A program made the translations under genes and the position numbers. A stretch of DNA of 64,000 bases from a virus: the IMG/VR virus record IMGVR_UViG_3300036818_000127, positions 1 to 64,000 of that record; one strand, written 5' to 3'. This document shows, one piece after another, positions 1 to 52,300 of the stretch. The notes under the pieces are model-generated. The model was not told the DNA's origin. It did no database searches and saw nothing but the letters and a program-made list of their open reading frames with translations. How positions within the stretch are numbered: position 1 is the stretch's first letter; every line of letters begins with the position of its first letter.

Positions 1-10
1 AGCATGAATG

Positions 11-625
11 ATGCAACCATGACAGAGCAAGCAACACACATGTGGTACATTGCAGCATTGGAAAGCAACTAGAGGGGAAATAAGCAGCAGGTAAACGGAA
101 TAATAGATGCAACAATATCTGTAGGACAATGCAACTGAGCTTGTCGAACCTTGCAATAAACAGGATTTACTGTGCAACAGTGGACCATGCGACACAATAG
201 AAGGAGACTTCTAGAGCAACACAGACTGGCGATTCGATCAGTCAGTCACCAAGCAACACGAGAGGTTAGTTACCAAGCTTGCAGCTAGGATGGTCTAAAG
301 TATGCAATGCAACAAGATAGCGTGAGGGATAAGTGCTGCAATGATATACCAATAATGCAACAATGGGAAATGATTGGCTTGCAACTTTGATATGTTATCC
401 ACCAAATGCAACTTTGATCAGAGAGTACTTATCCTTAGCAACATATGAGCGGCAACCACAACACGTAATGAGACCACTTAGTCAGAAGGTAACACAGAGA
501 CAAGCACCATGCAACACAGAGGATGAAATGCAATGAGAGGCAAGTGAGGATACAACTGGCGATCCAAGGTAAGCAACAAAGATGCCTATAAGGAGTACTG
601 CAACGTCAGGAAGAAAAGGTGCAAC
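11..625 (+). repeat. Field of about 27 degenerate (A/T)GCAAC mini-repeats separated by unique 7-30 nt segments; runs off the window start
   Basis: atgcaac at 11, 107, 129, 307, 355, 406, 509, plus variants aagcaac, ttgcaac, gtgcaac, ttgcagc; no credible ORF. Confidence 0.85.
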
Positions 626-635
626 TACTGAAGTG

Positions 636-5923: not shown

Positions 5924-7078
5924 CTATGACAGGTCTTTTACGGCCTGTGAAATCTTAGTTTTCAAGGCTGCAAGTTCCTGTGCGAGGGCACCTTGTTGAA
6001 GTGCAGCAATTTGCTTCTGTAGATCTGCAATTTGGGCAATAAGGATTGCATGTTGCTTCTGGTACCATTGCAATTCCTTCCCGAGCCAACCAGGGAAGAT
6101 ACCTAATTTAGGGTTATACTCTAGCCGATCTAGATTGAAGAGCTGGGCTTCTCCAGCTCCAAGCCCTGGGTTGCTCTGCTCCAGGATAGGGAAGTGCTTC
6201 ACGGTCTCAAGTGGGACATTTGCAGGGTCCCAATTAGATCCTCGTACAAGGTCTCGAAATCCTAGAGTGACGGGTGTCCCATCGGGTGCTTTGAGGGTGG
6301 TTCCATCATCACTCCACCCCTGCGGAGTAGTAGGCATAGTTGGTTGTCCTCCTGATACTGTCTTTGGAAATGCACTAAAGATTTGATCTAAGAGACTAGG
6401 ATTAGCTACAGCCGTTCCATAGTGCCAAATACTAATTGCAGTATGTCCTTGGTTATGAGCTAGTTTTGCAATATTTACAGGATCATTTGGCCCGACATCC
6501 TGTGTCATGTTTAGCGTTGGCTGTAGGCATGATGCCCCTATGAAGTCCTTCCAGAATGATGCAAGGAAGTTATTGTATTGCTGAGGAAGGTATACTGCCA
6601 CGCATGGGTTGAGTTCCGCCAGGACAGACTGCCATTTCTGCCAGCTCGGATCTCCCCATGTGCTCACAAGAAAGAGCCCGGGGTAGCCTTTCAGTTGCGC
6701 AGTAACGCGACGTGCCCAACCTGCCTGTCCATTCCACTCCACTTCCATATCAGCCACGACAGCCCCATCCTCTTGCATGAAGCTCTTGAGAATATTGATC
6801 TCACCATCAAGGAAGTTATAGGTATCCCCATACATCCATGTATAGGCAATGCACCCAACCCCTTCGCCGCGAATAACATCTCGCCGCTGCTTATATCCTG
6901 CCATTCCTCCATACCACCAGTTACCTCCATCTGCAGACTTGAGAATCAATGTATCTACCCCATGCGCTTTTGCAAACTGTGCCGCCTGGGTAAACTGGTT
7001 CATTTTCCACCCTGCGGTCTCAGTCCCCAAAAACAATAAGTGCTGACCTGTAACATTTGCTACATCTTGACATGCCAT
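5924..7078 (-). CDS. Endolysin (glycoside hydrolase TIM-barrel-like domain plus C-terminal domain and coiled coil)
   Basis: LILKSADG, VADMEVEW (DxE) and ISIWHY motifs; located between tail genes and holins. Confidence 0.75.
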   Translation of the reverse strand: MACQDVANVTGQHLLFLGTETAGWKMNQFTQAAQFAKAHGVDTLILKSADGGNWWYGGMAGYKQRRDVIRGEGVGCIAYTWMYGDTYNFLDGEINILKSFMQEDGAVVADMEVEWNGQAGWARRVTAQLKGYPGLFLVSTWGDPSWQKWQSVLAELNPCVAVYLPQQYNNFLASFWKDFIGASCLQPTLNMTQDVGPNDPVNIAKLAHNQGHTAISIWHYGTAVANPSLLDQIFSAFPKTVSGGQPTMPTTPQGWSDDGTTLKAPDGTPVTLGFRDLVRGSNWDPANVPLETVKHFPILEQSNPGLGAGEAQLFNLDRLEYNPKLGIFPGWLGKELQWYQKQHAILIAQIADLQKQIAALQQGALAQELAALKTKISQAVKDLS

Positions 7079-7093
7079 AGTTTACCCCTTTTG

Positions 7094-7453
7094 CTATGTT
7101 GGCTCTATTGATAATACCCCGAAGTCAAATGTTTGCGTTTTCCCTCCTGATGTAGCCTTGATCTGTTGGCGGAATGTACCTAGGCTTGCTACATCATTTA
7201 CTGATTGCTGGTAGGTGATCTGGGCAGGATCGCCGCCAGATGCTCCAAGCAGATTGCTAAAGACACCATCGCCTGGACGCTCAATGCCATTGGATATATT
7301 GCGTTGGAAGTAAGTAAAGTTCGACTCTGTTAATCCTGATGTATCGAAGTCTCCTGAGTCTGGTATGAGTTGGAAAGTCCAAGGTTCCAGGGTATCTCCT
7401 TGCGGCCAGGGTGATTGTGCCATGCTAGTCATTCCTTTCTGTTGCGATTCCAT
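7094..7453 (-). CDS. BppU-like small tail/baseplate protein (start probably at MAQSPW)
   Basis: QGDTLEP start and ITYQQSVNDV..GTF motif. Confidence 0.5.
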   Translation of the reverse strand: MESQQKGMTSMAQSPWPQGDTLEPWTFQLIPDSGDFDTSGLTESNFTYFQRNISNGIERPGDGVFSNLLGASGGDPAQITYQQSVNDVASLGTFRQQIKATSGGKTQTFDFGVLSIEPT

Positions 7454-9680
7454 CTCGCGTGTTACCTATCCCTTGTCCGTCTCGTGTGTATCCTTTGATA
7501 GCGACATAATGAACTGATGTTCCACTTCCTATCTCTGCTACTAAGACAGTATCCGGCGGTGCTTGAGAGAAACCTAGTAGGGAGACAAGTTCAGATAGGG
7601 CCACGCTATCCGGCGGAGCTACAAAAACTGCTACTCCGCCTGATGTGAGCATGGCAAGCTCTGAAAGCTGCACATTCTCAGGTGTGGCTTGAACTTTTCC
7701 AAGCATGAATTTTTGTTCTAAAAGCTGTATAAGATCAGTAGATTGGGCATTCCCCACCACCTGTACCAATTCTGTAAGTTGAGCAAAGTCTGATGCCTGC
7801 ATGCTTCCCTGTAAGGCGGTAGTCTCTGCTGAAAACACGCTCTCGATGGACTGGATGATACCTTTTAATTGAGAGAGGTCAGAAAGTTGGGTAGTATCAG
7901 AGTTTTGGAGAGTACCTAGGGAATTGATAGCCTCACCTAACTGCACTGTTTCAGGCGAGATTACAGTGTTGCCTTGCAAGGAAGTTTGATCGCTTGGCCC
8001 AGTAGTATCTGTGATTTTAGGCAATCCAAGTAAGGATACAAGATCAGAAATGGCAACAGACTCCGGTGGTGCAATAAAGACGGTTGCTGTAAAGGAAGAA
8101 ACAGTCTCGCTAAGGAGGATACTCTCAAACCCTAGAGTAGTCGCCCCTAGTAGATTAAGCAGATCAGATAATGGTATAGCTTCTGATAGTTGAATAGAGC
8201 CTTTTAAGGAATAGCTTTCCCCTAATTGCAGGATCTCGATACTCTGAGATTGGTTCGTGAGCTGTGAAGTCTCTCCAGGTTGCACATTTTCAAGACTTTG
8301 AAGCTTCCCAGCCTGAGAACTATTCTCACTAAGTTGAACATTCTCACTAACTATAGAGGTCATGCCTAATAGATTGATAGTTTCTGTTAGCGGATCAGTA
8401 TCCGTATTTTGCATGGACCCTAAGAGCGTGGGTGTACTCTCTCCTGGCTGAGCAGTGTCTATAGAGGATGGCCGTCCTATCTGTGAGCCACTATCCCCTG
8501 GCTGTGCTAATTCTGCTGCTACCTGAGTACTTCCTAGTAGTGTCATTTGATCAGCAATTGGGTCGCTATCAATGATTGAAGGTCTTCCTACTAGTGCTGT
8601 TGTTCCCTCCCCTGGCTGTGCATTCTCTGCTGCTATTGATGTTATCCCTAAGAGCTGATTTAGGTCTGCTAGGGATGCAGTATCACTAGTGGATGGTTTC
8701 CCAGCTAAGGCTGGAGTATTCTCTCCAGGTTGTGCATTCTCAGAAGCTATTGAAGTAGATCCTGATAGATTTGACTGATCAGATAGTGGCGCACTATCAG
8801 GAACCTGGGTAGACCCTAAGAGAGAGGTAGTTAATTCTAGAGGTGACACACTCTCGCTGGGCTTTGGCATACCTGCTAGCAATGTCGTTTCCCCTATAGA
8901 TACATTCTCAGGAGTAGGTGATGCCTTCCCCGCAAGCGTGCTTAAATCAAGTACTGAAACAGTATCTATAGTGGACGGATTCCCTCCTATTGCAAGTATC
9001 TCTGAAAGCGATGGGGATTCAGATAATGATGGAAGTCCAATAATTGTATATATCTCTGAAACAGATACAGACTCATCAGGAGCGGTAAATGTATTGGTGG
9101 TAGATGCAGGTGTAAACGTACTAGTTGTTATTTGCATGTCATTGGCAACGCCAGCAGAAGATGAGTTGCCAATATAAATAGTGGGATTATCGCCACCTGC
9201 ATTAGAACTATTATCATGATACCATAAATCTGTATATAAACCATCAGTTGCATTAGCAAATGTTATTGTGCTCATAGAGGTATTTGTAAAGGTATAGGTT
9301 GTTTTAGCTGCCGTGTTTGTGGCCTTGTTAATAGTCCCAATTAGAGTATAAACACCACTTACCCATCTAAAAAAACGAATTGTGCAGTCTGACGTTGTTG
9401 ATGCGACGTGCGCAAATGTGAAGATGGCACCCCAATTTCCAGTTGCAAACGTGCCTGCGCCTGGGTAGACTATCCATCCATGGCCCGTTGGAGTCGCGGG
9501 AATGGCCGTAACAGTTGCAAGTCCCGCGCTTCCTTGTGACCACACTTCCGCAAAGACATTTGAGGCAGTCAGAATCGTCTGCTTCGATGTCTCAACACCG
9601 CCGCTAGCCGATGCCATTGCGCAAGCAGTTGCCAGCGTTCCATCTGCAATTGATGTACCGTAGTATGTCAATGTTGCCAT
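7425..9680 (-). CDS. Tail-associated protein with long 19-21 aa tandem repeats
   Basis: Repeats of the form ENAQPGExTxLxG; S/T rich; in the tail module. Confidence 0.7.
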   Translation of the reverse strand: MATLTYYGTSIADGTLATACAMASASGGVETSKQTILTASNVFAEVWSQGSAGLATVTAIPATPTGHGWIVYPGAGTFATGNWGAIFTFAHVASTTSDCTIRFFRWVSGVYTLIGTINKATNTAAKTTYTFTNTSMSTITFANATDGLYTDLWYHDNSSNAGGDNPTIYIGNSSSAGVANDMQITTSTFTPASTTNTFTAPDESVSVSEIYTIIGLPSLSESPSLSEILAIGGNPSTIDTVSVLDLSTLAGKASPTPENVSIGETTLLAGMPKPSESVSPLELTTSLLGSTQVPDSAPLSDQSNLSGSTSIASENAQPGENTPALAGKPSTSDTASLADLNQLLGITSIAAENAQPGEGTTALVGRPSIIDSDPIADQMTLLGSTQVAAELAQPGDSGSQIGRPSSIDTAQPGESTPTLLGSMQNTDTDPLTETINLLGMTSIVSENVQLSENSSQAGKLQSLENVQPGETSQLTNQSQSIEILQLGESYSLKGSIQLSEAIPLSDLLNLLGATTLGFESILLSETVSSFTATVFIAPPESVAISDLVSLLGLPKITDTTGPSDQTSLQGNTVISPETVQLGEAINSLGTLQNSDTTQLSDLSQLKGIIQSIESVFSAETTALQGSMQASDFAQLTELVQVVGNAQSTDLIQLLEQKFMLGKVQATPENVQLSELAMLTSGGVAVFVAPPDSVALSELVSLLGFSQAPPDTVLVAEIGSGTSVHYVAIKGYTRDGQGIGNTRDGIATERND

Positions 9681-30242: not shown

Positions 30243-30371
30243 AAAAATAACCTCCTTCCAAGCATACTGTTCGTTTAATCCGAACATACGGCCTGAAAAG
30301 AGGTATCTCGTATGCGTATTCACATTGAGAATTTGTTGTTAAGAACAAGTATACAACATTAAATCACAATG

Positions 30372-30584
30372 TCAAATCAAGGGTTGTTTAGACGGGGGCC
30401 ACAACCTCTCTGCTGGGTAGGCTGTGTAGAGTGCCCTGCTCTCCATGCCCTCTGGAGAGAAGATTGCATGGAAAGTACCATCCTGTTCGATGACCACATA
30501 TGCGGGCTTACCCTCTTTGTCTGCATACCTCTGTGCTTGGCATTGTACTGGTACAAATGCTTGCATCATCTCTTTATCCGTCAT
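30372..30584 (-). CDS. Hypothetical protein
   Basis: 70 aa, AAAGGA RBS. Confidence 0.55.
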   Translation of the reverse strand: MTDKEMMQAFVPVQCQAQRYADKEGKPAYVVIEQDGTFHAIFSPEGMESRALYTAYPAERLWPPSKQPLI

Positions 30585-31361: not shown

Positions 31362-31427
31362 GGATTTTGAGCACAAAAATACCCACTTTCATTATATATT
31401 CTTTGAAAGTGGGTACTCATAATAATA

Positions 31428-32460
31428 GTTGCAAATTTAATCACAATGTCAAACTATTGAGTGACATTGGTGTGTGCTGCATCAATCCCCATAGATCAGG
31501 CTATTGCATCAATCCCTAGATGGCTGGCCCAACGTTGCATGTATCGCAGTTCATTCTTGGTTGCAATTCTCCCATATGGTTGTCTTGACAATATCTTCAA
31601 AGTTGCACTGGCCTTTTCGTGAGTATAGTTGCATCTTGATCACTAGTTTCATCGCATTCCTAACAGTTGCACTATGCTCCTGATATGCATTCATTGTTGC
31701 ATTGAAAGCATCAGGATGCTGCGGTGCTTTTCAAGGATAGCCGGTTGCCTAGTAGCATCCCATTGTTGCATGATGATAGCTATTAGTTACAGTTGCACTA
31801 TAGTTGAAACTTTCCCTGGATAGTTGCATTATCTATGCCTCCCTATAATGCTACAACTTCCCCTTATTTAGTTACATTGACGCTATGCTGTTGCATTGCA
31901 ATTCAGCCTATGGGTTGCATTGGTAGTCACTGGAAGATTACTAGGTTACATCAATAACTTAGATAGCTAGTTGCATTTCATGCTTCATTAGTTACACTTG
32001 CTTCCATTTCTACCCTTGTTGCATAAAAGGTATATGGTCGTATCTCTGTCGCATTTATTGTTGCATCCAAAACCATTATCAGTGTTGCATCCTGTGGTGA
32101 CTGTTGCATCCCACTAAGTCCTCTGCATGTTGCAGTCAATATTACCTTGTTGTTATTGTCACATTTGCAAGCTGCATTATCCCTAACAGGAGAGATTTTA
32201 TAGTGCTGCATGTCATTTCTGGTTGCATTATAGTTGCATGTACTACTTGCCTCCAGTTGCAGTTTCCCCTGGGTTATACTAGTTGCATTGTGTCACCTGA
32301 TGGGATTGTGTTGCATTAATCCCCTCAAGGGACTATCACGTCAAGAAACCCGTTGCAGTCTTGTGTTGCATAGAAAGGAGTAGCAGTCTGTATAGTTGCA
32401 GTATCCTCTAATTTCTGACAGTTGCATCAATCCCTAGTTGAGATTAGGATAGCATTGTTA
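31428..32460 (-). repeat. Field of about 40 degenerate (A)TGCAAC mini-repeats
   Basis: About 27 exact GTTGCA on the + strand in about 1 kb, plus variants; some extend to GTTGCATCAATCCC. Confidence 0.9.
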
Positions 32461-32461
32461 G

Positions 32462-32890
32462 GTTACAATTATGCCCTTTGCTAGTGCTGTTGCAATCATT
32501 GGGCTAGATAACTTTCACTAGAGGGATAGAGCAAAGTTACAATCATTCCCCTAGCAGCTAGATCTCGCAACCTGTTTACACCTTCACCGATTGCTGTCAG
32601 TCGCTCGCAGTTGCAATTATTCTTCCAGCAGCCAGCCATTGCAATGGAAGTACATTATATTGCAATTATTCCTCCAGCGGCCAGCCATTGCAATTAGAGA
32701 AGAATAAAGGAGATGAGATGGGAAACAGGTTGCAATCATCCCCCAGCGACTAGACCCTTGCAACATGAGTTAGATGAGGGTGAGCAGCTGGCCTGGGCTC
32801 GTTGCAATCATCCCCCCTGGCAACTATGCCATTGCAATCAGCATATTCTATATGATTTACAATATCATACCCATTGCAATCATTCCCCTA
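32462..32890 (-). CRISPR. Degenerate CRISPR-like array with 6 full 35-38 nt repeats and one half repeat; no cas genes in the window
   Basis: Repeats at 32462-32496, 32536-32571, 32610-32645, 32659-32694, 32729-32764, 32801-32838 and half 32873-32890; spacers 39, 38, 13, 34, 36, 34 nt; example GTTGCAATCATCCCCCAGCGACTAGACCCTTGCAAC (+). Confidence 0.75.
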
Positions 32891-33097
32891 TATATTTTAA
32901 AAGAGCCAGCCTCAAGGGAGCCACCGCGAAGCGAGTACCCGCTAGGGTTTTGTGGCGATGTTCCTGCCAGAAAGAGTCAAGTCCCCTATACCCCTAAGAG
33001 TAATCTTCGGATCATACGGCCATTCCCCAGCAGCTCGGCCTGTAACTACTGAAGCGAACTTCGACGAGCCGAGACAATCCGAAGATTGCAAAGCAGA
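32891..33097 (-). ncRNA. Structured leader / putative scaffold RNA next to the array
   Basis: Nested inverted repeats ATCTTCGGAT/ATCCGAAGAT, CTCGGC/GCCGAG, CCAC/GTGG; strand assumed from the operon. Confidence 0.45.
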
Positions 33098-33290
33098 TTA
33101 TAACACAGGTTTTCTGAGAAGTGTATCCCTTTTCTCCAATGCTTCCTTGAACATTTTCCATGCCCAACTCCGGCCAGATCCACGACTCCAGATGTCACAG
33201 GTATATGGCCTCCGGTCTCGAAGTATGGCCGTTACTCTATCGAAGTCTGCCTTCGTAAATTCGACGCATTCCTCAACATACTCATACTGC

Positions 33291-39466: not shown

Positions 39467-40319
39467 TAGGAACTCCTTGGTGGATCTCACTAAAAAGACG
39501 GCGGTAAATGACAATAATTGCCTTCGCATGGCTTACATTGTACTTTGACTGAAGAAGCGTGTCATGCCACTCACGAAGTCCGCTGTTGATTTGCAATGGA
39601 CTATTTGTTCGGTACCATTTCCCACATTTCCAGAACTCAGGGAAGGCGCGGATAGCTAATCCCTTCTGGACAGGGATGTGGATATCATAGGATTTGCAAG
39701 AAAGAAGAAAGTCTATGAGGTCAGGATTGCGAAAGGAATCATAGATCTGTACCCCACATGAAAGTGCTGTTTTTATACAACTTATATCTGAACCACCTTC
39801 CCAAGCAAGCCATTCACGCCGCTTCTGCGTAAACCATTCCTCCCCATGTTCCTTGATACCTACAGAAAAAAAGCGAGATACGCCCCATAAGTCATCAGCA
39901 TTCATTGCGAATGATGCATCACGGTACCCATCATTAAAAGCTGCTTCTGCAAGATAGAGGAATGGATGCGCACATTGTATATGTATTTTTCTGAGTCTAC
40001 AGACAATTGGCAGCACACGGCGAATATCGGCAATGAGTGTTTCCTCATTCTGAGGGATTGAGACAATCGTATGGGGGATATCAAAGTACTTGCAGACAGA
40101 TCGAGAGACCTTTGCATCACTACTCTCACGGTTCCCTACCTGGAAGGTATAGCAGTGTGGTGGCTTATATCCGAGCGAGAGAATACCAGCAAGGTTTGTC
40201 ATACTATCAGTTCCGCCGCTTAGCATCAGCGGCATAGACACATAGGGCTTGATTGCCTCTTGGAACAGAGATCGGAATGTCTGCGCCTGCTGCTCTTGCT
40301 GTCTGCTCACTGCTCGCAT
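39459..40319 (-). CDS. Asparagine-synthetase-like ATP-dependent amide ligase (synthetase domain only)
   Basis: LMLSGGTDS PP-loop and NADDLWG; no glutaminase domain. Confidence 0.75.
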   Translation of the reverse strand: MRAVSRQQEQQAQTFRSLFQEAIKPYVSMPLMLSGGTDSMTNLAGILSLGYKPPHCYTFQVGNRESSDAKVSRSVCKYFDIPHTIVSIPQNEETLIADIRRVLPIVCRLRKIHIQCAHPFLYLAEAAFNDGYRDASFAMNADDLWGVSRFFSVGIKEHGEEWFTQKRREWLAWEGGSDISCIKTALSCGVQIYDSFRNPDLIDFLLSCKSYDIHIPVQKGLAIRAFPEFWKCGKWYRTNSPLQINSGLREWHDTLLQSKYNVSHAKAIIVIYRRLFSEIHQGVPNA

Positions 40320-41749
40320 TGATCTAGTATCCTCTCCTGTATCGTCTTGGCTACCTTTTCCATCATCACAGGAGGCACTGCACGGCCAAGTCGCTCCCAT
40401 TGCTGTGAATAGGTCCCTGTCAGAATAAAATCATCTGGAAATGCACAGATCCTCTTCAGTTCAGCAATAGAAAATTTCCGCTTCTCAGTTGGATGGGTAA
40501 CGCCAGCAGCAGCAGCAGGTGACCATGCAGTGCCAGCAGTCTGGGTGACAGTAGGGCATGGGCCATCAAGGGGTGCTCGCTGTAGAGAGAAGTATTTTTG
40601 ACTCTGTTCTCCAGGCTTTAATTTATCCCATTCCCTGCCGATTGCAAACTTGCTAATATCAGATTCAGGCTCAACAATCTGTTCCTCTATCCAGTGTGTT
40701 CCTACTGATCCAGATAAAACTGTTGGGCTCGGCTGGTCAGTAATATCGCTGCCATTACCAAAGGCCCCGCGATCATCACGGATAGCACGGATAGGGACAT
40801 GCTGTTCCTCGATATACCATTGCTGCATTGTCGTCAAGGTCGGAGAGGGAGTATCTGTAATGTCCCCCTTGCTATATTGAGGTTGGCCTTTTGCATCATG
40901 GATCGCACGTACAGGAATAGCTTCAATAAGGCTAGAAGGGGAAAGCCCATTTCCAAATGCTGGACTTGCGCCAATAGTGCCGCTAGGTGAGGTGGATGTA
41001 TCTCTCCATCCCTCTGTCCCGAATACTGGTCCAGCGCCTTGTCTGATGATCCAGGGCAATGCCTCACGTACTGTATAGGTATAAGGAAGTGGAGCCGGAT
41101 GGGCTGGCCTTATCTTGTACTGCTCAACAAGATCATTTCTCACACCGACAAAGATAAGGCGTTGGCGCATCTGGGGGACACCGAGCCACTGCGCATCAAG
41201 GATCTTGGCCTCAACAGTATAGCCACATGATTTTAGTTCCTTCAGTATCTCTAGGAAGTAGCCTTTAGCTGTCCCCTTCACAAGCCCGCTCACATTCTCA
41301 GCAACAAATACCTTTGGCTGTAATCCCTTGAGAAGTCGTACATATTCAAAGAAGAGATCATCAACCCGCTGGCGCGTATCACTGTAATCCTTGACTTTGC
41401 CCCAGCTTGCCTCACGCTTTCCAGCAGTTGAGAATGATGCACAGGGAGGACTTCCTTCAAAGACATCAAGCTCACCCTGATTTAGATGTATAGCTTTTAA
41501 AATCTCATCTGGTTTTATTTTACGGATATCACGCGCATCAAGAATAGAATGAGGATGATTAGCTTTATAGGTATCTCGTGCTGCTGGTATAAATTCATTT
41601 GCCCAAAGAATACGGTACCCTGCAAGACGGAATCCAAGGCAACTTCCGCCACACCCTGAGAATGTACTTACAACATTACGGCCATTCCATGGTATTTGTT
41701 CTATTTCCCTCATTGAAGGGACTCTGTAAGGAGGCTTGTCTTTTATCAT
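40307..41749 (-). CDS. DNA cytosine-C5 transferase, probably a carboxymethyltransferase
   Basis: FSGCGG, GSPPC, ENV and QMRQR motifs; motif X reads GRAV instead of GNAV; ATGA overlap with the upstream gene. Confidence 0.9.
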   Translation of the reverse strand: MIKDKPPYRVPSMREIEQIPWNGRNVVSTFSGCGGSCLGFRLAGYRILWANEFIPAARDTYKANHPHSILDARDIRKIKPDEILKAIHLNQGELDVFEGSPPCASFSTAGKREASWGKVKDYSDTRQRVDDLFFEYVRLLKGLQPKVFVAENVSGLVKGTAKGYFLEILKELKSCGYTVEAKILDAQWLGVPQMRQRLIFVGVRNDLVEQYKIRPAHPAPLPYTYTVREALPWIIRQGAGPVFGTEGWRDTSTSPSGTIGASPAFGNGLSPSSLIEAIPVRAIHDAKGQPQYSKGDITDTPSPTLTTMQQWYIEEQHVPIRAIRDDRGAFGNGSDITDQPSPTVLSGSVGTHWIEEQIVEPESDISKFAIGREWDKLKPGEQSQKYFSLQRAPLDGPCPTVTQTAGTAWSPAAAAGVTHPTEKRKFSIAELKRICAFPDDFILTGTYSQQWERLGRAVPPVMMEKVAKTIQERILDQCEQ

Positions 41750-42342
41750 TTCGGCTTTCCAGACCATTGATAGCTGCATTTTGGGCAACAGTATTCTGTA
41801 TCGATACCTTCATCATAGCTCTTGAAATCATCTGGTGATTCCCTGCCATCATCCTCCTCATCTAGATAGGCATCCCCGAGCTTTTCTAACATCTGGCGGA
41901 GTGCTTCCCCGTCCGTCCCGAGACTTGCAAGATCAAACCCCGCCTGCTCCTGTTCCTCTAAGAGCTGGGCCAGGGACAATTCATCTGGTTCAGCTTTATT
42001 CCCTAAGTGATTGTCGCTAACCATATAGCCTTTGGCGTCTAATATGCTCCACTCTGGAGGTGCGATAACAACAGCCCAGCTATTGAGGTGAGCATACTTT
42101 GCAGGGTTTTCTGCATACAGTTCTTTTGCTGCCTCAGTGATTCCATGACCAGCAAGGATAATGTACTGTTCCTCGCCGACAGCCTGCTGGACGACAATGG
42201 GGCGCACCTGCTTGTACCTCATAAGTGAGGCTTTTAGGTCTGCAATTTGAGCAGGTGGATGTTGATTGTAGTTGGCCGGATGACCTTCAAGGCTATCAAG
42301 GGTTACTCTTTTGAATTGGACCTCATTGCTTGTTGCAGGCAT
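41746..42342 (-). CDS. ParB/Srx-like N-terminal domain protein with C-terminal Zn ribbon
   Basis: HPANYNQH..LKASL..PIVV..ILAGHG, SDN and CPKCSYQW. Confidence 0.8.
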   Translation of the reverse strand: MPATSNEVQFKRVTLDSLEGHPANYNQHPPAQIADLKASLMRYKQVRPIVVQQAVGEEQYIILAGHGITEAAKELYAENPAKYAHLNSWAVVIAPPEWSILDAKGYMVSDNHLGNKAEPDELSLAQLLEEQEQAGFDLASLGTDGEALRQMLEKLGDAYLDEEDDGRESPDDFKSYDEGIDTEYCCPKCSYQWSGKPK

Positions 42343-44526: not shown

Positions 44527-45549
44527 ATGGAGGTACTCATGGAATATGAAGTTATCCCTGTTCATTCCACTCTTGACCAAGTTGGGCAAAGTGAGAATGT
44601 CATCTCAGCAAACAATGCTTTTAAGGACTATCATGACAGGATAGACCCAAATACTTTTGCACGTCAAAGTTATGACATGGCACTCTTTTGCGCATTTATT
44701 GCAAGCAAGAAAGTGCTAGTAGACAAAGATGAGCTATTATCCAGTCCCAGAGCATGGTTAGATATCACTCACGGAATGATTGACAGCTTTGCAAAATGGA
44801 TGATAGAAGAAGGCTTTGCTATAGGCTCAATAAATATACGTTTATCTACTGTAAAGACGTACTTCAAGCTTGCTTCTAGAGCAGGCTATATTCAACCTGA
44901 TGAAGCAGTAAAAGCCCATTTTGTAAAAGGGTACAGCTACAAGCAAGGGCTAAACGTTGATGAACGAAGGGAGATAAAGCGCAAGGATAAGAGCAAGAAA
45001 GCTGAGCCCATACCATTAACAAAAGAGCAAACGGATCTACTTAAAAAGCATCCAAATACACCACAAGGGCGACGTGATGCCTTGCTTATGTGCTTGCTCT
45101 TAGATCATGGTTTACGATGTGGGGAGGTTGCAGACCTTACACGTGCCAATATTCAACTTACCTCTGGAATACTTACCTTTCATAGGGAGAAAACCAAAGA
45201 AGAGGATAAGCATAAACTCACGAATGATACATTGGTTGCCCTCATGAGGTACTTTGAAGTCTACCATCCAACTGGCAAGCTCATAGCTGGCAGCCATAGG
45301 AGCGGCCAACTTATGGGGGAAATGAGCAGAAGAGCCATAACTAAGCGTGTACAAGTCTTAGGGGAGCAGATACTTGGGATAAAGAATCTCTCAGCGCATG
45401 ATTGCAGACACGCTTGGGTGGAAGCTGCCATACGAGGGGGAACCAATATCAAGACGCTCCAACAAGCGGGTGGCTGGTCAAGTCCCGCTATGCCACTGAG
45501 ATACGCCGCAAAGGCTGAAATTTCAAATGAAGGAGTAAAACTAGGATGA
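44527..45549 (+). CDS. int: Tyrosine recombinase / integrase
   Basis: GLRCGE, K, HDCRH and GW..M..RY catalytic residues. Confidence 0.92.
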   Translation: MEVLMEYEVIPVHSTLDQVGQSENVISANNAFKDYHDRIDPNTFARQSYDMALFCAFIASKKVLVDKDELLSSPRAWLDITHGMIDSFAKWMIEEGFAIGSINIRLSTVKTYFKLASRAGYIQPDEAVKAHFVKGYSYKQGLNVDERREIKRKDKSKKAEPIPLTKEQTDLLKKHPNTPQGRRDALLMCLLLDHGLRCGEVADLTRANIQLTSGILTFHREKTKEEDKHKLTNDTLVALMRYFEVYHPTGKLIAGSHRSGQLMGEMSRRAITKRVQVLGEQILGIKNLSAHDCRHAWVEAAIRGGTNIKTLQQAGGWSSPAMPLRYAAKAEISNEGVKLG

Positions 45550-49384: not shown

Positions 49385-52300
49385 TTACCATAAATTGGTT
49401 TGAACGGCTGCTGCTACCTTTTTAGCTTTCCGTGTCCTCTTCAAGGCATCTCGCTTAGCCCTCAGAGCTGCCCAGGGGTCCTGAGTAAGTGCTACTGGTA
49501 TGATTATCATGGGCTCAACTGATCCCTTCAATGGCTCTGTGGTAATGTCTCCTGCAAGTGGTATCTCCATATCCTCCTGCTCAGGATCGGCATCGGCTGT
49601 GATGTATTCATTCCGTGCAAGGGCTGCTTCCTCAGATGCTTTGAATTGCCTCTGGAGTTCTTCGGCCTCGGCCATCAGGTCGGCTGTGTTATTTTTCCCG
49701 CTATCAAGGGCTTCCTTGACCTGTCGGGCAAGGGCAATTGAGAAGCTACTATCGCTGTCCCCTTCATCTACTCCAAAGGAGACAAGTCCCTCTCCTGGTA
49801 GCTGGCCCTCAACCATAAAGGCAGTTTCCATCTTCCGTGACATTAATAACAAGAGACGCTGCTCCATTGTCGGGTAGACTAATATGATGACCTTGGTGTG
49901 CTTTGTCTGCTTTGGTCTATGTATCCTTCTAAAGGATTGCCGCATCTGGGATGTCGATGTCGGGACCTCAGAACAGATAATCGTGTGGAAGTCTATTAGG
50001 TCGAGACCTACTTGGACCAGGGCGCTATTGCAGATAAGAACATTGCATCCGTTCTCGACATGCTTCTTGAGTACTGCTTCCCTTCCTAATGTATTACCTG
50101 ATCTCAGGATAGCAACCTGGGGGATGTTCCCATTGCGAGGGCGGACGTGAGTCTCTATCAGGGACTTATAGCGGGGCTGGATATCATGCTCCCCTGTATT
50201 TTCGCAGTAGATGATAACCTTTCTGTCCTGCTCCAGCTCCCCTTGGATAATGTCAATTATCCTTTGCTCTTTGGGATAGATCTCTGACTCATCGAGCTTC
50301 CTAGCCGTTCCAAGAATGTAGCCTGTCTTTTTGACTGAGCAGACAGTCTCTTCAAAGGGCATATTAGGGTAGCGCCTCAAACATTGGAACCAAGAACCTA
50401 ATGCCCTCTTATCCCCTAGTACTAGCATTGCAGCTAACTCAGCAGTGATTGTACTCTCAAACGATTTATATGCTTCTTCCAGGGGTCCCGACATTGGAAT
50501 GATGTCTACCTCTTCAGAGTAGGGAGGTAAGTACGGGGCCACATCTTTAAGCTCCAGGAAGGCAGATCGTTCAAACAAAGGCGGAAGGCCATTCGGTGAG
50601 AATGCGGCCATCTCATGTTCTTCTCCACGACCGCTGGACTTTTTCTTGCTTATAGCTCCATCTCCGCCGCTATCTAAGTCATCCTTCTTTTCCTTAATCA
50701 CAGTTTTTCTGGCTCCGTACCGATCAACCCATTCCCTCATGCCATCATAAGAGAATTGCTGGCGGACATCTGGATTAATACTCCAGGCGAAGGGGAATAA
50801 TGATGAGGCATACCCATTACATAAGGTCCCCGTTAGACCTAAGTAGGATTCGCATGCTCCCATCAGGGAACGTCGGGCAAAGTCGAGGGCTGTCCCCTCC
50901 TTCCCTTGGTGGATCTCATCGCTGATCAGGAGTTTGAAGAAACCTGAATGAAACTTTCTAATATAGTCGGCCACGCTGAACCGTCGAAAGCTGGTATCCT
51001 TGACAGTCTTAGGGAGACTTCCAAGGCTGTCTGGAAGAGGGAGGGCAACTACTGCATCGCCACTTCTCAATACTGACTTAGGCTCAAAGTCCTTCCCTGT
51101 CGTGTACTGCCATAAGGGACCACCGCAGGAACCGCACCATCTCTTTTTGTGCTTTTTAGCACTGATCCACAATTCTTGTTCAGTGACGTAAGCTCCTTCA
51201 TCCTCATCCATCTCTTCTTCTATTGAAGAGAGGGCTTTTCCATTTCGCTTCTTGCGTGCTATCTGATCCTTTTTTCTTTTGTAGTCAGGATTGCTTTTCA
51301 TTAAGCGATCAATGCGTGCCTGATCCTTTACAGGAGCAAAACAGCTCGGGCAGCATGGTGTCAATCTAGGAAGTTTCGTTTCCTCGTCATGCTGTACTGC
51401 CACCTTTCCATTCGCATCTAGTGTTCGCATTGGGGAAAGCCGATATGCCAACGTCCAGGCCATACTCAACTTGGCCGTCCCATTAGGGATAATGACTAGG
51501 TGACATGGCTTCTGAGGAAGTGGGCGACCATGCAATTTTGCTTCATCATATTGCTGCCGCCAGTCCTGGAGTTCATAGTCAATCCTTTTGATAACCCTCT
51601 CAATACATCCGACTGCCGACAGTTTCTCGCCTCTCCAGAATGGATCAAATTGCCTTAGCTCTCTTGACTTCTCAGGAGTATCAATTCTCTGAACAACAAT
51701 CGCATGGACATTTGGGATAGTATCCTCTGCCTCGCGTTTCCATTTGTACGCGATGATCTCTGGGACCATCACGACAGCTGGGGAAAGCTCAATCTTCTTA
51801 GCTGTTGAGGGAAGCATGTCAGCACAGCCATTCAGGTCCATATCCCCTAAGAAGAGGGTGGATAGGGATAAGTAGGTCTTGCCAGTCGCCATCTCGGCGA
51901 TCTCACCGACCCTATTCATAGGAGCATGATCTTTCCCTCCGACCATTGCATTCACAATAGCAAGGATAAAGCCTTTCTGTCTACCGAGCGGTTGACGTAG
52001 CATCCGAGAGAAGGCGGCGTTGGCCCAGGGGACTTGAGACGGGCTGTGATAGAGCGGGGGATTGCTCTCTAACAGCTTCTCTGTTAGGGCTCCACCAAAG
52101 TTATCCAGGAAGGAACGAAGAGACATTGTTTCATGGGGAATGCTGAGCATCCCGACCATTGGCCCTGTTTCAATCCTGATAAGCTGACCGAGGGTATCAC
52201 CTTCTGTCATATCGATACACCAGAGGGATGACTCGAAGCTATCACGTTTCTCTGTGATGATATTCTCTTCATCTTCAGAGACCTTGGTCACTTTGCGCTT

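Follow-up and report, generated by a model that had tools for sequence, protein, structure and literature searches.

Handle-like mini-repeats linked to a Cas12f-like gene and a tracrRNA-like scaffold in a phage genome: a candidate minimal-handle guide array

Mini-repeat arrays in a circular phage genome

The window analyzed here, the whole stretch of 64,000 nucleotides, covers positions 1 to 64,000 of IMGVR_UViG_3300036818_000127, a record of 109,417 bp. Its identical 127-bp ends indicate that the phage genome, of ~109,290 bp, is circular, and the IMG/VR entry lists direct terminal repeats and a completeness of 100%. Virion genes (terminase, portal, protease, and HK97-type capsid protein) lie on the minus strand at 24 to 30 kb. 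The window opens with a field of short repeats on the plus strand, which an earlier note on this DNA had placed at 11-625. The real field is four times longer and is cut by the window edge: it begins at genome position 107,444, continues to 109,290, and ends at window position 626, for a total of 2,476 nt. The ~626 nt at window 1-626, with 18 exact copies of GCAAC, are about the last quarter of this field, which we call array A. Going upstream from array A, one meets a leader, a scaffold RNA of ~270 nt, a promoter of near-consensus sequence (TTGACA-17-TATACT; genome 106,804-106,832), and a gene that diverges from the scaffold and array and encodes a 563-aa Cas12f/Cas12e-like effector (genome 105,024-106,715, minus strand). 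The effector gene is followed by a winged-helix gene (108 aa, Trans_reg_C) and an HTH_17 gene. The Cas12f-like gene, promoter, and scaffold RNA lie 2.4 to 4.3 kb upstream of the window start, across the circular junction, where the earlier note had advised looking for a leader or a Cas12f or TnpB gene.

Within 11-625, exact GCAAC occurs 18 times on the plus strand and GTTGC not once, in line with the earlier description of the motif as confined to one strand. ATGCAAC is present in 7 exact copies, and in 19 if one mismatch is allowed, compared with 0 on the opposite strand. Simulation under a first-order Markov model gives 1.7 ± 1.3 copies of GCAAC (maximum 8) and 2.7 ± 1.6 one-mismatch copies of ATGCAAC, so the per-strand enrichment that had been proposed as a check is clear. 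The earlier count of about 27 copies reflects a real excess but overstates the core motif, as that total is reached only by admitting looser variants as well (GCAAT, GCAGC, GCGAC, and GTAAC). In the window as a whole, TGCAAC is found 89 times against an expectation of 35 ± 5.6, and the excess consists of two clusters, at 1-625 on the plus strand and at 31,428-32,806 on the minus strand.

Taken at its full length, array A holds 73 exact copies of GCAAC, and 79 copies of ATGCAAC with at most one mismatch on one strand versus 2 on the other. The motif density is 31.9/kb, compared with 1.7/kb in the rest of the genome, and the consensus is (C)AATGCAAC followed by a base other than G. The sequences between the motifs, here called spacers, peak at 11 to 23 nt (median 19, range 8 to 96 nt) and have a sharp lower length bound, with only 3 of 78 falling below ~11 to 12 nt; the unit period is ~26 nt, and there are no full repeats anywhere in the array. 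Spacers are A-rich and C-poor (17 to 19% C versus 22.8% in the genome), and the window part of the array, taken as RNA, folds like its shuffles (z = -0.04). A repetitive protein or an alternative genetic code was also considered and ruled out: the spacing of copies modulo 3 (32/31/15) has no coding periodicity, and no frame exceeds 103 codons, or 228 with TAG read as sense, in a field of ~825 codons, so that none is long under any stop reassignment. The statement that the region has no open reading frame was thus correct.

A second field on the opposite strand, array B, has a more complex structure. Its mini-repeat part (31,428-32,470, minus strand) contains 37 copies of ATGCAAC at one mismatch or fewer, with a median spacer of 19 nt. 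Its leader-proximal part (32,471-32,893, minus strand) consists of a half repeat and six repeats of 35 to 38 nt, such as GTTGCAAGGGTCTAGTCGCTGGGGGATGATTGCAAC, then progressively shorter repeats; the full repeats end in …GATGATTGCAAC and are separated by spacers of 13 to 38 nt. The mini-repeat motif equals this 3' end, as had been noticed for the repeats at 32.5 to 32.9 kb, and the two fields are indeed inverted relative to each other. Next to the repeats lies a second, homologous copy of the scaffold found beside the effector gene (scaffold copy B; 32,900-33,096, minus strand), which is tracrRNA-like with the anti-repeat loop GUAGUUACA. It is preceded by a promoter-like element (33,097-33,130, minus strand) that has an extended -10 sequence, TGtTATAAT, and lines up with TTGACA-17-TATACT, the promoter at the other loci. 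Reading along the minus strand from 33,130 to 31,428, the order is promoter, scaffold, full repeats, shortened repeats, and mini-repeats. Array B is a second array of the same system, without an effector gene of its own. Scaffold B has the loop GUUACA where copy A (genome 106,833-107,100) has GUUGCA, and it lacks an insertion of ~115 nt present in copy A; it may be degenerate or specialized.

Other repeats in the genome are worth recording beside these arrays. The sequence TTGACATTGTGATTAAAT is present twice on the minus strand, at the end of array B (31,419-31,446) and ~1 kb downstream (30,348-30,375), where it sits in a promoter-like site, TTGACA-16-TATACT; possibly it is a late-promoter element that recurs ahead of the packaging genes. 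Besides the 36-nt repeats at 32.47-32.89 kb, the only full repeats in the genome form another array, at 81.8-82.1 kb. This array (genome 81,800-82,150; L009) is a canonical array of four 37-nt repeats, ATTGCAGTACCCTCAAGGCGGGTCGATGGATTGCAAC, with 37-nt spacers, and ~700 bp past it, at genome 82,750-83,150, are four shortened repeats (GTTGCAGTAYCCT…) with a 54- to 59-nt period. Neither the canonical array nor its shortened repeats are adjoined by a scaffold copy. We take its 37-nt repeat to be equal in length to the Un1Cas12f1 repeat and ~65% identical to it.

Effector, scaffold RNA, and related loci

The effector carries the Cas12f1-like TNB domain PF07282 at 35 bits, above the Pfam cut-off of 26.3. 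Its profile matches are to CasX (2e-20) and Cas12f (4e-19), its sequence matches include CasX/Cas12e, Cas12f, and TnpB, and its best match by sequence in the PDB is Cas12e. An AF2 model with a pLDDT of 84.5 gave AsCas12f and CasX as the top Foldseek hits, with E values of 1e-15 to 1e-16. A split RuvC fold and a TNB/zinc ribbon within a single protein are the features by which type V (Cas12) effectors are recognized, and both are present. The protein scores below the NCBIfam cut-offs for Cas12f2 (69.1 versus 450), Cas12e (59.2 versus 200), and guided_TnpB (70.8 versus 100). Its family is small: 29 proteins were found, the named members coming from Ktedonobacteria bins of soil metagenomes, and a search of IMG/VR and GTDB genomes with back-translated patterns returned no relatives.

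Two of the catalytic residues are kept, the RuvC-I Asp (in a GIDRS motif) and the RuvC-II E432, but the D-E-D triad is not intact, the RuvC-III Asp being lost. Alignment with 22 homologues showed that its clade (P0001-P0004) retains both of these residues and has DVG in P0001, and NVY or DVY in P0002-P0004, at the position of the RuvC-III HAD, whereas P0005-P0020 retain the Asp, nearly all of them as HAD. Because of this loss, the effector complex most likely binds DNA without cutting it, and could thereby act as a natural form of multiplexed CRISPR interference. Matches to Cas1 (PF01867) and Cas2 (PF09827) were absent from the complete 109-kb genome in searches that were positive for control genomes, and no Cas4 accompanies the system.

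Seven copies of the scaffold could be aligned, the two in this genome together with the homologues in five metagenome contigs. RNAalifold predicted 49 pairs, of which 26 have compensatory changes, and the sequence GGUAGUUGCA is invariant, lying unpaired within a covarying helix. On sequence comparison, then, the scaffold is a real RNA of predicted tracrRNA-like type. No Rfam family fits the scaffold or the arrays, and the scaffold signature GTAGTTRCA…CTGGG…CCGTATGA was not found in IMG/VR or GTDB genomes. Between the scaffold and array A, the 351-nt leader is significantly structured (z = -3.8) and has GUUGCA in several of its hairpin loops.

The predicted link between scaffold and array is a 6-nt scaffold loop, GUUGCA, that is complementary to the UGCAAC handle formed by the mini-repeat. 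Handle and loop change together: the combination UGCAAC/GUUGCA in G000, L011, and L013 becomes UGAGGG/CCCUCA in L014 and L015 and UGUGAC/GUCACA in L017, amounting to six compensatory pair changes in the homologous scaffold loop across three clades. Base pairing of an anti-repeat with the repeat's 3' end, as predicted here, is a feature of type V-F tracrRNAs. Scaffold B, with its loop GUUACA, is mismatched to the dominant UGCAAC handle.

Work on Cas12f guides offers a precedent for so short a handle. In Un1Cas12f1 guide RNAs, the sequence …GGAATGCAAC immediately precedes the guide, the engineered guide ge4.1 retains those 10 repeat nucleotides and no more, which shows that a repeat of ~10 nt suffices, and the tracr part of ge4.1 has a CTTGCAT hairpin loop (bioRxiv 10.1101/2022.10.20.513037). 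The mini-repeat motif matches this 3' end of the Cas12f1 repeat (…GGAATGCAAC). The repeat end of Un1Cas12f1 and the ten-base repeat of ge4.1 together suggest that the mini-repeat represents a Cas12f-type crRNA handle cut down to its minimum.

The same arrangement recurs in other phages. In all five retrievable contigs with effectors 66 to 70% identical to this one (L010-L013 and L016), we found the same divergent promoter, scaffold, and GCAAC field; these contigs amount to two distinct arrays from two soil-metagenome phage lineages, as L011, L012, and L016 share one and L010 and L013 the other. In L011, eight canonical 37-nt repeats with 35- to 38-nt spacers come first and are followed by ~45 mini-repeats. 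An ordinary IS605-type TnpB gene of 425 aa (L011:101-1378, minus strand) sits directly at the distal end of that mini-repeat array. INPHARED contains no close phage. Comparable fields do occur in relatives, as the earlier note had expected of a genuine feature: in a related phage represented by two fragments (L001 and L002; 83% identity in TerL), a field precedes an operon promoter. A complete related phage, G001 (85% identity in TerL), lacks effector and field alike, which ties the field to the effector and not to packaging or the virion module. The bracketing of the virion module by the two fields, to which the earlier note drew attention, therefore looks incidental.

More distant family members indicate that the form of the array follows the state of the RuvC site. 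Where the D-E-D triad is intact, in L017, the array is canonical, with a 38-nt repeat and ~36-nt spacers. In L015, whose effector is a 34% identical homologue with Asn at RuvC-I, the array is irregular, with shortened repeats (core GAUGAGG) and short spacers, and in the G000 clade loss of the RuvC-III Asp goes with mini-repeats. The L015 locus (L015:2150-3200) has its scaffold and array downstream of the gene, with ~25 degenerate repeats of ~17 nt (GGGCGYGTGGGATGAGG) at irregular spacing, and looks like an independent case of array compaction.

Among the matches listed from a triple-motif scan of IMG/VR, nearly all were coding tandem repeats. Two unrelated viral contigs, L044 (reverse complement, 6,970-7,800) and L109 (5,800-6,700), have iteron-like GCAACC arrays of AATGCAACC or GATGCAACC; the L044 units keep a 20-nt phase and have inverted partners, and the L109 array lies in a Mu-like context. 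A GCAAC array alone is therefore insufficient to identify this system.

Guides, decoys, relics, or DNA sites

For the role of the motif, the earlier note had named three options, a guide array, an RNA decoy, and a DNA-binding array, without singling out any of them; the Cas12f-like gene, promoter, and scaffold upstream favor the first. We consider it somewhat more probable than all else together that the fields act as a minimal-handle guide array, supplying an effector that binds DNA under RNA guidance. According to this model, the promoter at genome 106,804-106,832 would drive one long noncoding transcript containing, in order, the ~270-nt scaffold, the hairpin-rich leader of ~350 nt, and ~80 units of handle plus segment, with window 1-626 as its distal end. 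Each unit would comprise a 7- to 8-nt handle, (A)AUGCAAC, and a unique segment of ~12 to 22 nt. The handle, a type V-F repeat reduced to its minimal 3' end, would dock on the GUUGCA loop, and the segment after it would, upon processing and loading, be presented as the guide. The RuvC-impaired effector would then bind DNA without cutting, with its targets probably in the host or in rival elements, and the single effector gene would also serve in trans the ~40 more units of array B.

Several observations speak for this guide-array model. The anatomy of the effector (its TNB domain, its matches to CasX, Cas12f, and TnpB, and its Foldseek hits), the compensatory changes among the scaffold copies, and the covariation of handle and anti-repeat in three clades all point to an RNA-guided system, as does the Un1Cas12f1/ge4.1 precedent. 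Co-occurrence supports it as well, both in the linkage conserved through five contigs and in the joint lack of effector and field in G001, and so does the correspondence between array form and RuvC state. What distinguishes guides from other uses of a handle is the behavior of the spacers, where the evidence is divided.

In favor of guides, spacer sequences are shared between arrays that cannot be aligned. A 15-nt spacer lying between two handles, AATATCTGTAGGACA (114-128, plus strand), agrees at 13 of 15 positions with an L011 spacer of equal length whose neighboring units are unrelated. In array B, the first 15 nt after a handle, CAAGAATGAACTGCG (31,545-31,559, minus strand), are identical to the start of an L011 spacer in an otherwise unrelated context, and shorter shared starts link array A with L001 (10 nt) and with L011 (9 nt). 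Between unalignable arrays, three shared handle-anchored prefixes of at least 9 nt were observed against 0.38 expected, and for those of at least 11 nt the null expectation is 0.04. The sharp lower bound on spacer length is a further point in favor.

Comparison of L001 with L002 bears on both sides. Motif sites differ by 3.7% and spacers by 10.3%, and the motif is kept even in unalignable arrays, which upholds the earlier proposal that the motif itself is under selection and fits the guide-array model. Most spacers have no detectable purifying selection, and their rate is about the local third-codon rate, as third-codon divergence in the gene beside the array is 8.6%. Purifying selection on spacers had at first been suggested by the 27% divergence at TerL fourfold sites, and was dropped in view of the 8.6% in the adjacent gene.

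Searches for targets also count against guides. No protospacers were found for any array unit in the phage's own genome or in G001. Matches of 13- to 16-mers, and of 18-mers with at most one mismatch, to the own genome were at about the control level apart from one case, and G001 as a target gave matches no better than a reversed-sequence control. For three canonical spacers, 20-nt seeds found no protospacers in IMG/VR. The sole near match in the own genome joins positions 51,024-51,046 (plus strand) to the array A unit at genome 107,660-107,682, with 22 of 23 nucleotides identical and the mismatch at guide position 7; the unit follows a handle variant, ATTGCAAG, and the matched site lies within a minus-strand gene for a 1,332-aa DUF6094 methyltransferase-helicase. 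This could be a self-avoiding match to a gene held in common with rival phages, or chance. Irregular spacer lengths (8 to 96 nt, some too short for guides), the A-rich, C-poor composition expected of unstructured linkers, the absence of Cas1 and Cas2, and the mismatch of scaffold B to the handle likewise weigh against the guide-array model.

Much of this would be expected if the array were instead a handle-only decoy or sponge RNA, whose ~80 handles titrate a tracrRNA:Cas12f-type complex through 6-bp pairing and whose segments are linkers. If that complex belonged to the host, the array would act as an RNA anti-CRISPR; if it were the phage's own, the array might be a buffer or regulator. Clear constraint on the motif only, A-rich spacers that evolve at about the local neutral rate and fold no more than shuffles, short and irregular spacing, and the lack of targets in the own genome and G001 are all compatible with it, and phage guide-mimic RNAs are known to sequester class 2 effectors (vsgRNAs; bioRxiv 10.64898/2026.06.01.729453). 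Against it, the array is in every case accompanied by an effector and a scaffold that the phage itself encodes, unalignable arrays have spacer starts in common above chance, one of them 15 nt long, and few array A spacers (3 of 78) fall below the sharp bound. We regard a decoy as unlikely; if it were one, RNA anti-CRISPRs against type V systems would gain their first tandem, handle-only example.

It is more doubtful still that the fields are eroded relics, the decayed trailer ends of former CRISPR arrays with no present function. Full repeats do lie next to the leader and mini-repeats distally in array B and L011, intermediate shortened repeats exist, and there is no Cas1 or Cas2. Decay of a repeat-spacer unit of 72 to 75 nt does not lead to a period of ~26 nt, however, nor to a strand purity of 79 to 2 or a motif that is conserved relative to its spacers. 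Array A, moreover, is devoid of full repeats, and the phage gives 2.5 kb plus 1 kb of its genome to fields that are kept in all loci of the clade. Least probable, if by little, is a DNA-level array in which TGCAAC is a directional double-stranded site for the winged-helix protein, for packaging, or for Chi-like protection: the directional motif, the inverted fields, the Trans_reg_C gene adjoining the effector, and the GCAACC arrays in L044 and L109 would fit, but spacing is irregular and flanks are not repeated as they are in the L044 iterons, the syntenic L011 locus has no winged-helix gene, G001 has a homologous terminase and no fields, and the motif changes jointly with the scaffold loop, as RNA pairing predicts and a DNA-binding protein does not.

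Returning to the minimal-handle guide array, we offer a fuller version of it tentatively, as a possibility that could well prove wrong in some part. A phage equipped with a nuclease-impaired Cas12f-like protein, one trans scaffold, and more than 100 handle-only guides might bind many host or rival sites at once, as an ultracompact multiplex CRISPR interference array whose units arise without Cas1-Cas2 and turn over without classical adaptation. If the units are real guides, this would be the most compact natural guide array known, at ~26 nt per guide compared with ~73 nt in a CRISPR array. In nature, pairing of a 7-nt handle with a scaffold supplied in trans would then suffice, a result with which Cas12f guide engineering independently agrees, and miniature effectors could be multiplexed very densely after the same pattern. 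Such an array would also leave to be explained how guides can be acquired and lost when Cas1-Cas2 are lacking, and would add a phage-borne, probably noncutting RNA-guided binder with an unusually large repertoire to the exapted TnpB/Cas12 systems.

Relation to known systems

Among known systems, type V-F and the nuclease-dead derivatives of Cas12f come nearest to this one, at scores below the curated cut-offs. It resembles type V-F (Cas12f1/Cas14a) in its miniature effector with a Cas12f-like fold and TNB zinc ribbon, in phage repeats that start with (G/A)TTGCA and end with AT(T)GCAAC, where the Un1Cas12f1 repeat ends in …GGAATGCAAC, and in a long scaffold RNA with a loop complementary to the repeat end. 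It differs in that the effector has no RuvC-III Asp and a Cas12f2 score of 69 versus 450, in that 37-nt repeats and ~36-nt spacers are replaced by 7-nt handles and irregular spacers of ~12 to 22 nt, and in being phage borne, with no Cas1, Cas2, or Cas4. A canonical CRISPR array has near-identical repeats of ~23 to 55 nt and spacers of almost constant length, and region 1-626 is set apart from it by a recurring element of only 7 to 8 nt and spacers of anything from 8 to 96 nt; the genome, besides, has no Cas1/Cas2 adaptation module.

Among RuvC-inactivated TnpB/Cas12 members, dCas12f-sigmaE, TldR, Cas12k, and Cas12m carry out RNA-guided DNA binding without cutting, and HTH genes are often adjacent to nuclease-dead Cas12f/TnpB derivatives, as here. 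Minimized arrays or half repeats have been described for dCas12f lineages (PMC10691335; PMC13472631). In such derivatives the guide is a single chimeric RNA or one of a few omega-RNA-like copies, and every copy brings its own scaffold, whereas the phage system has one scaffold for ~120 handle-only units in two arrays and no associated sigma factor or transposase.

Two further groups are comparable. In type V-K CASTs, natural minimal-repeat guides function with a tracrRNA-dependent effector (bioRxiv 10.1101/2021.02.06.429022). The truncated V-K units are single, serve homing, and stand beside a normal array; those of the phage come by the dozen in tandem, with a shorter remnant, of 7 to 8 nt. 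Racr and viral sgRNAs are likewise phage-encoded RNAs that mimic parts of repeats or guides and engage Cas proteins, but they act as solitary or few units against the host's Cas, and this phage brings its own effector and scaffold. In the literature on Cas12f/TnpB derivatives and guide mimics, we found no description of this form of array.

Other repeat-based systems fit less well. In contrast to TnpB, whose omega RNA overlaps the 3' end of tnpB and extends to the transposon end, the scaffold is upstream of the gene and divergent from it, and no TnpA was seen nearby. Irregular spacing argues against TIGR-Tas, which has regular tandem units with dual spacers, and the Nop domain PF01798 of Tas proteins is absent from the genome. 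Irregular spacing and unique flanks also separate the fields from iteron- or centromere-like repeats, of which the 20-nt phase in L044 is an example.

Several other features of the genome deserve mention. A tyrosine integrase is encoded at window 44,527-45,549. The region from 37.6 to 44.2 kb (including 40,307-41,788), upstream of the packaging genes, contains a C5 cytosine methyltransferase, further methyltransferases, and a saccharopine-dehydrogenase-like gene. Outside the window, at genome ~92,399-92,682 (L007:400-683), the Rfam model of HEARO, the omega RNA of IscB, matches with 102.9 bits (gathering threshold 83); judged by this match, the phage would have another RNA-guided element, unrelated to the one described here.
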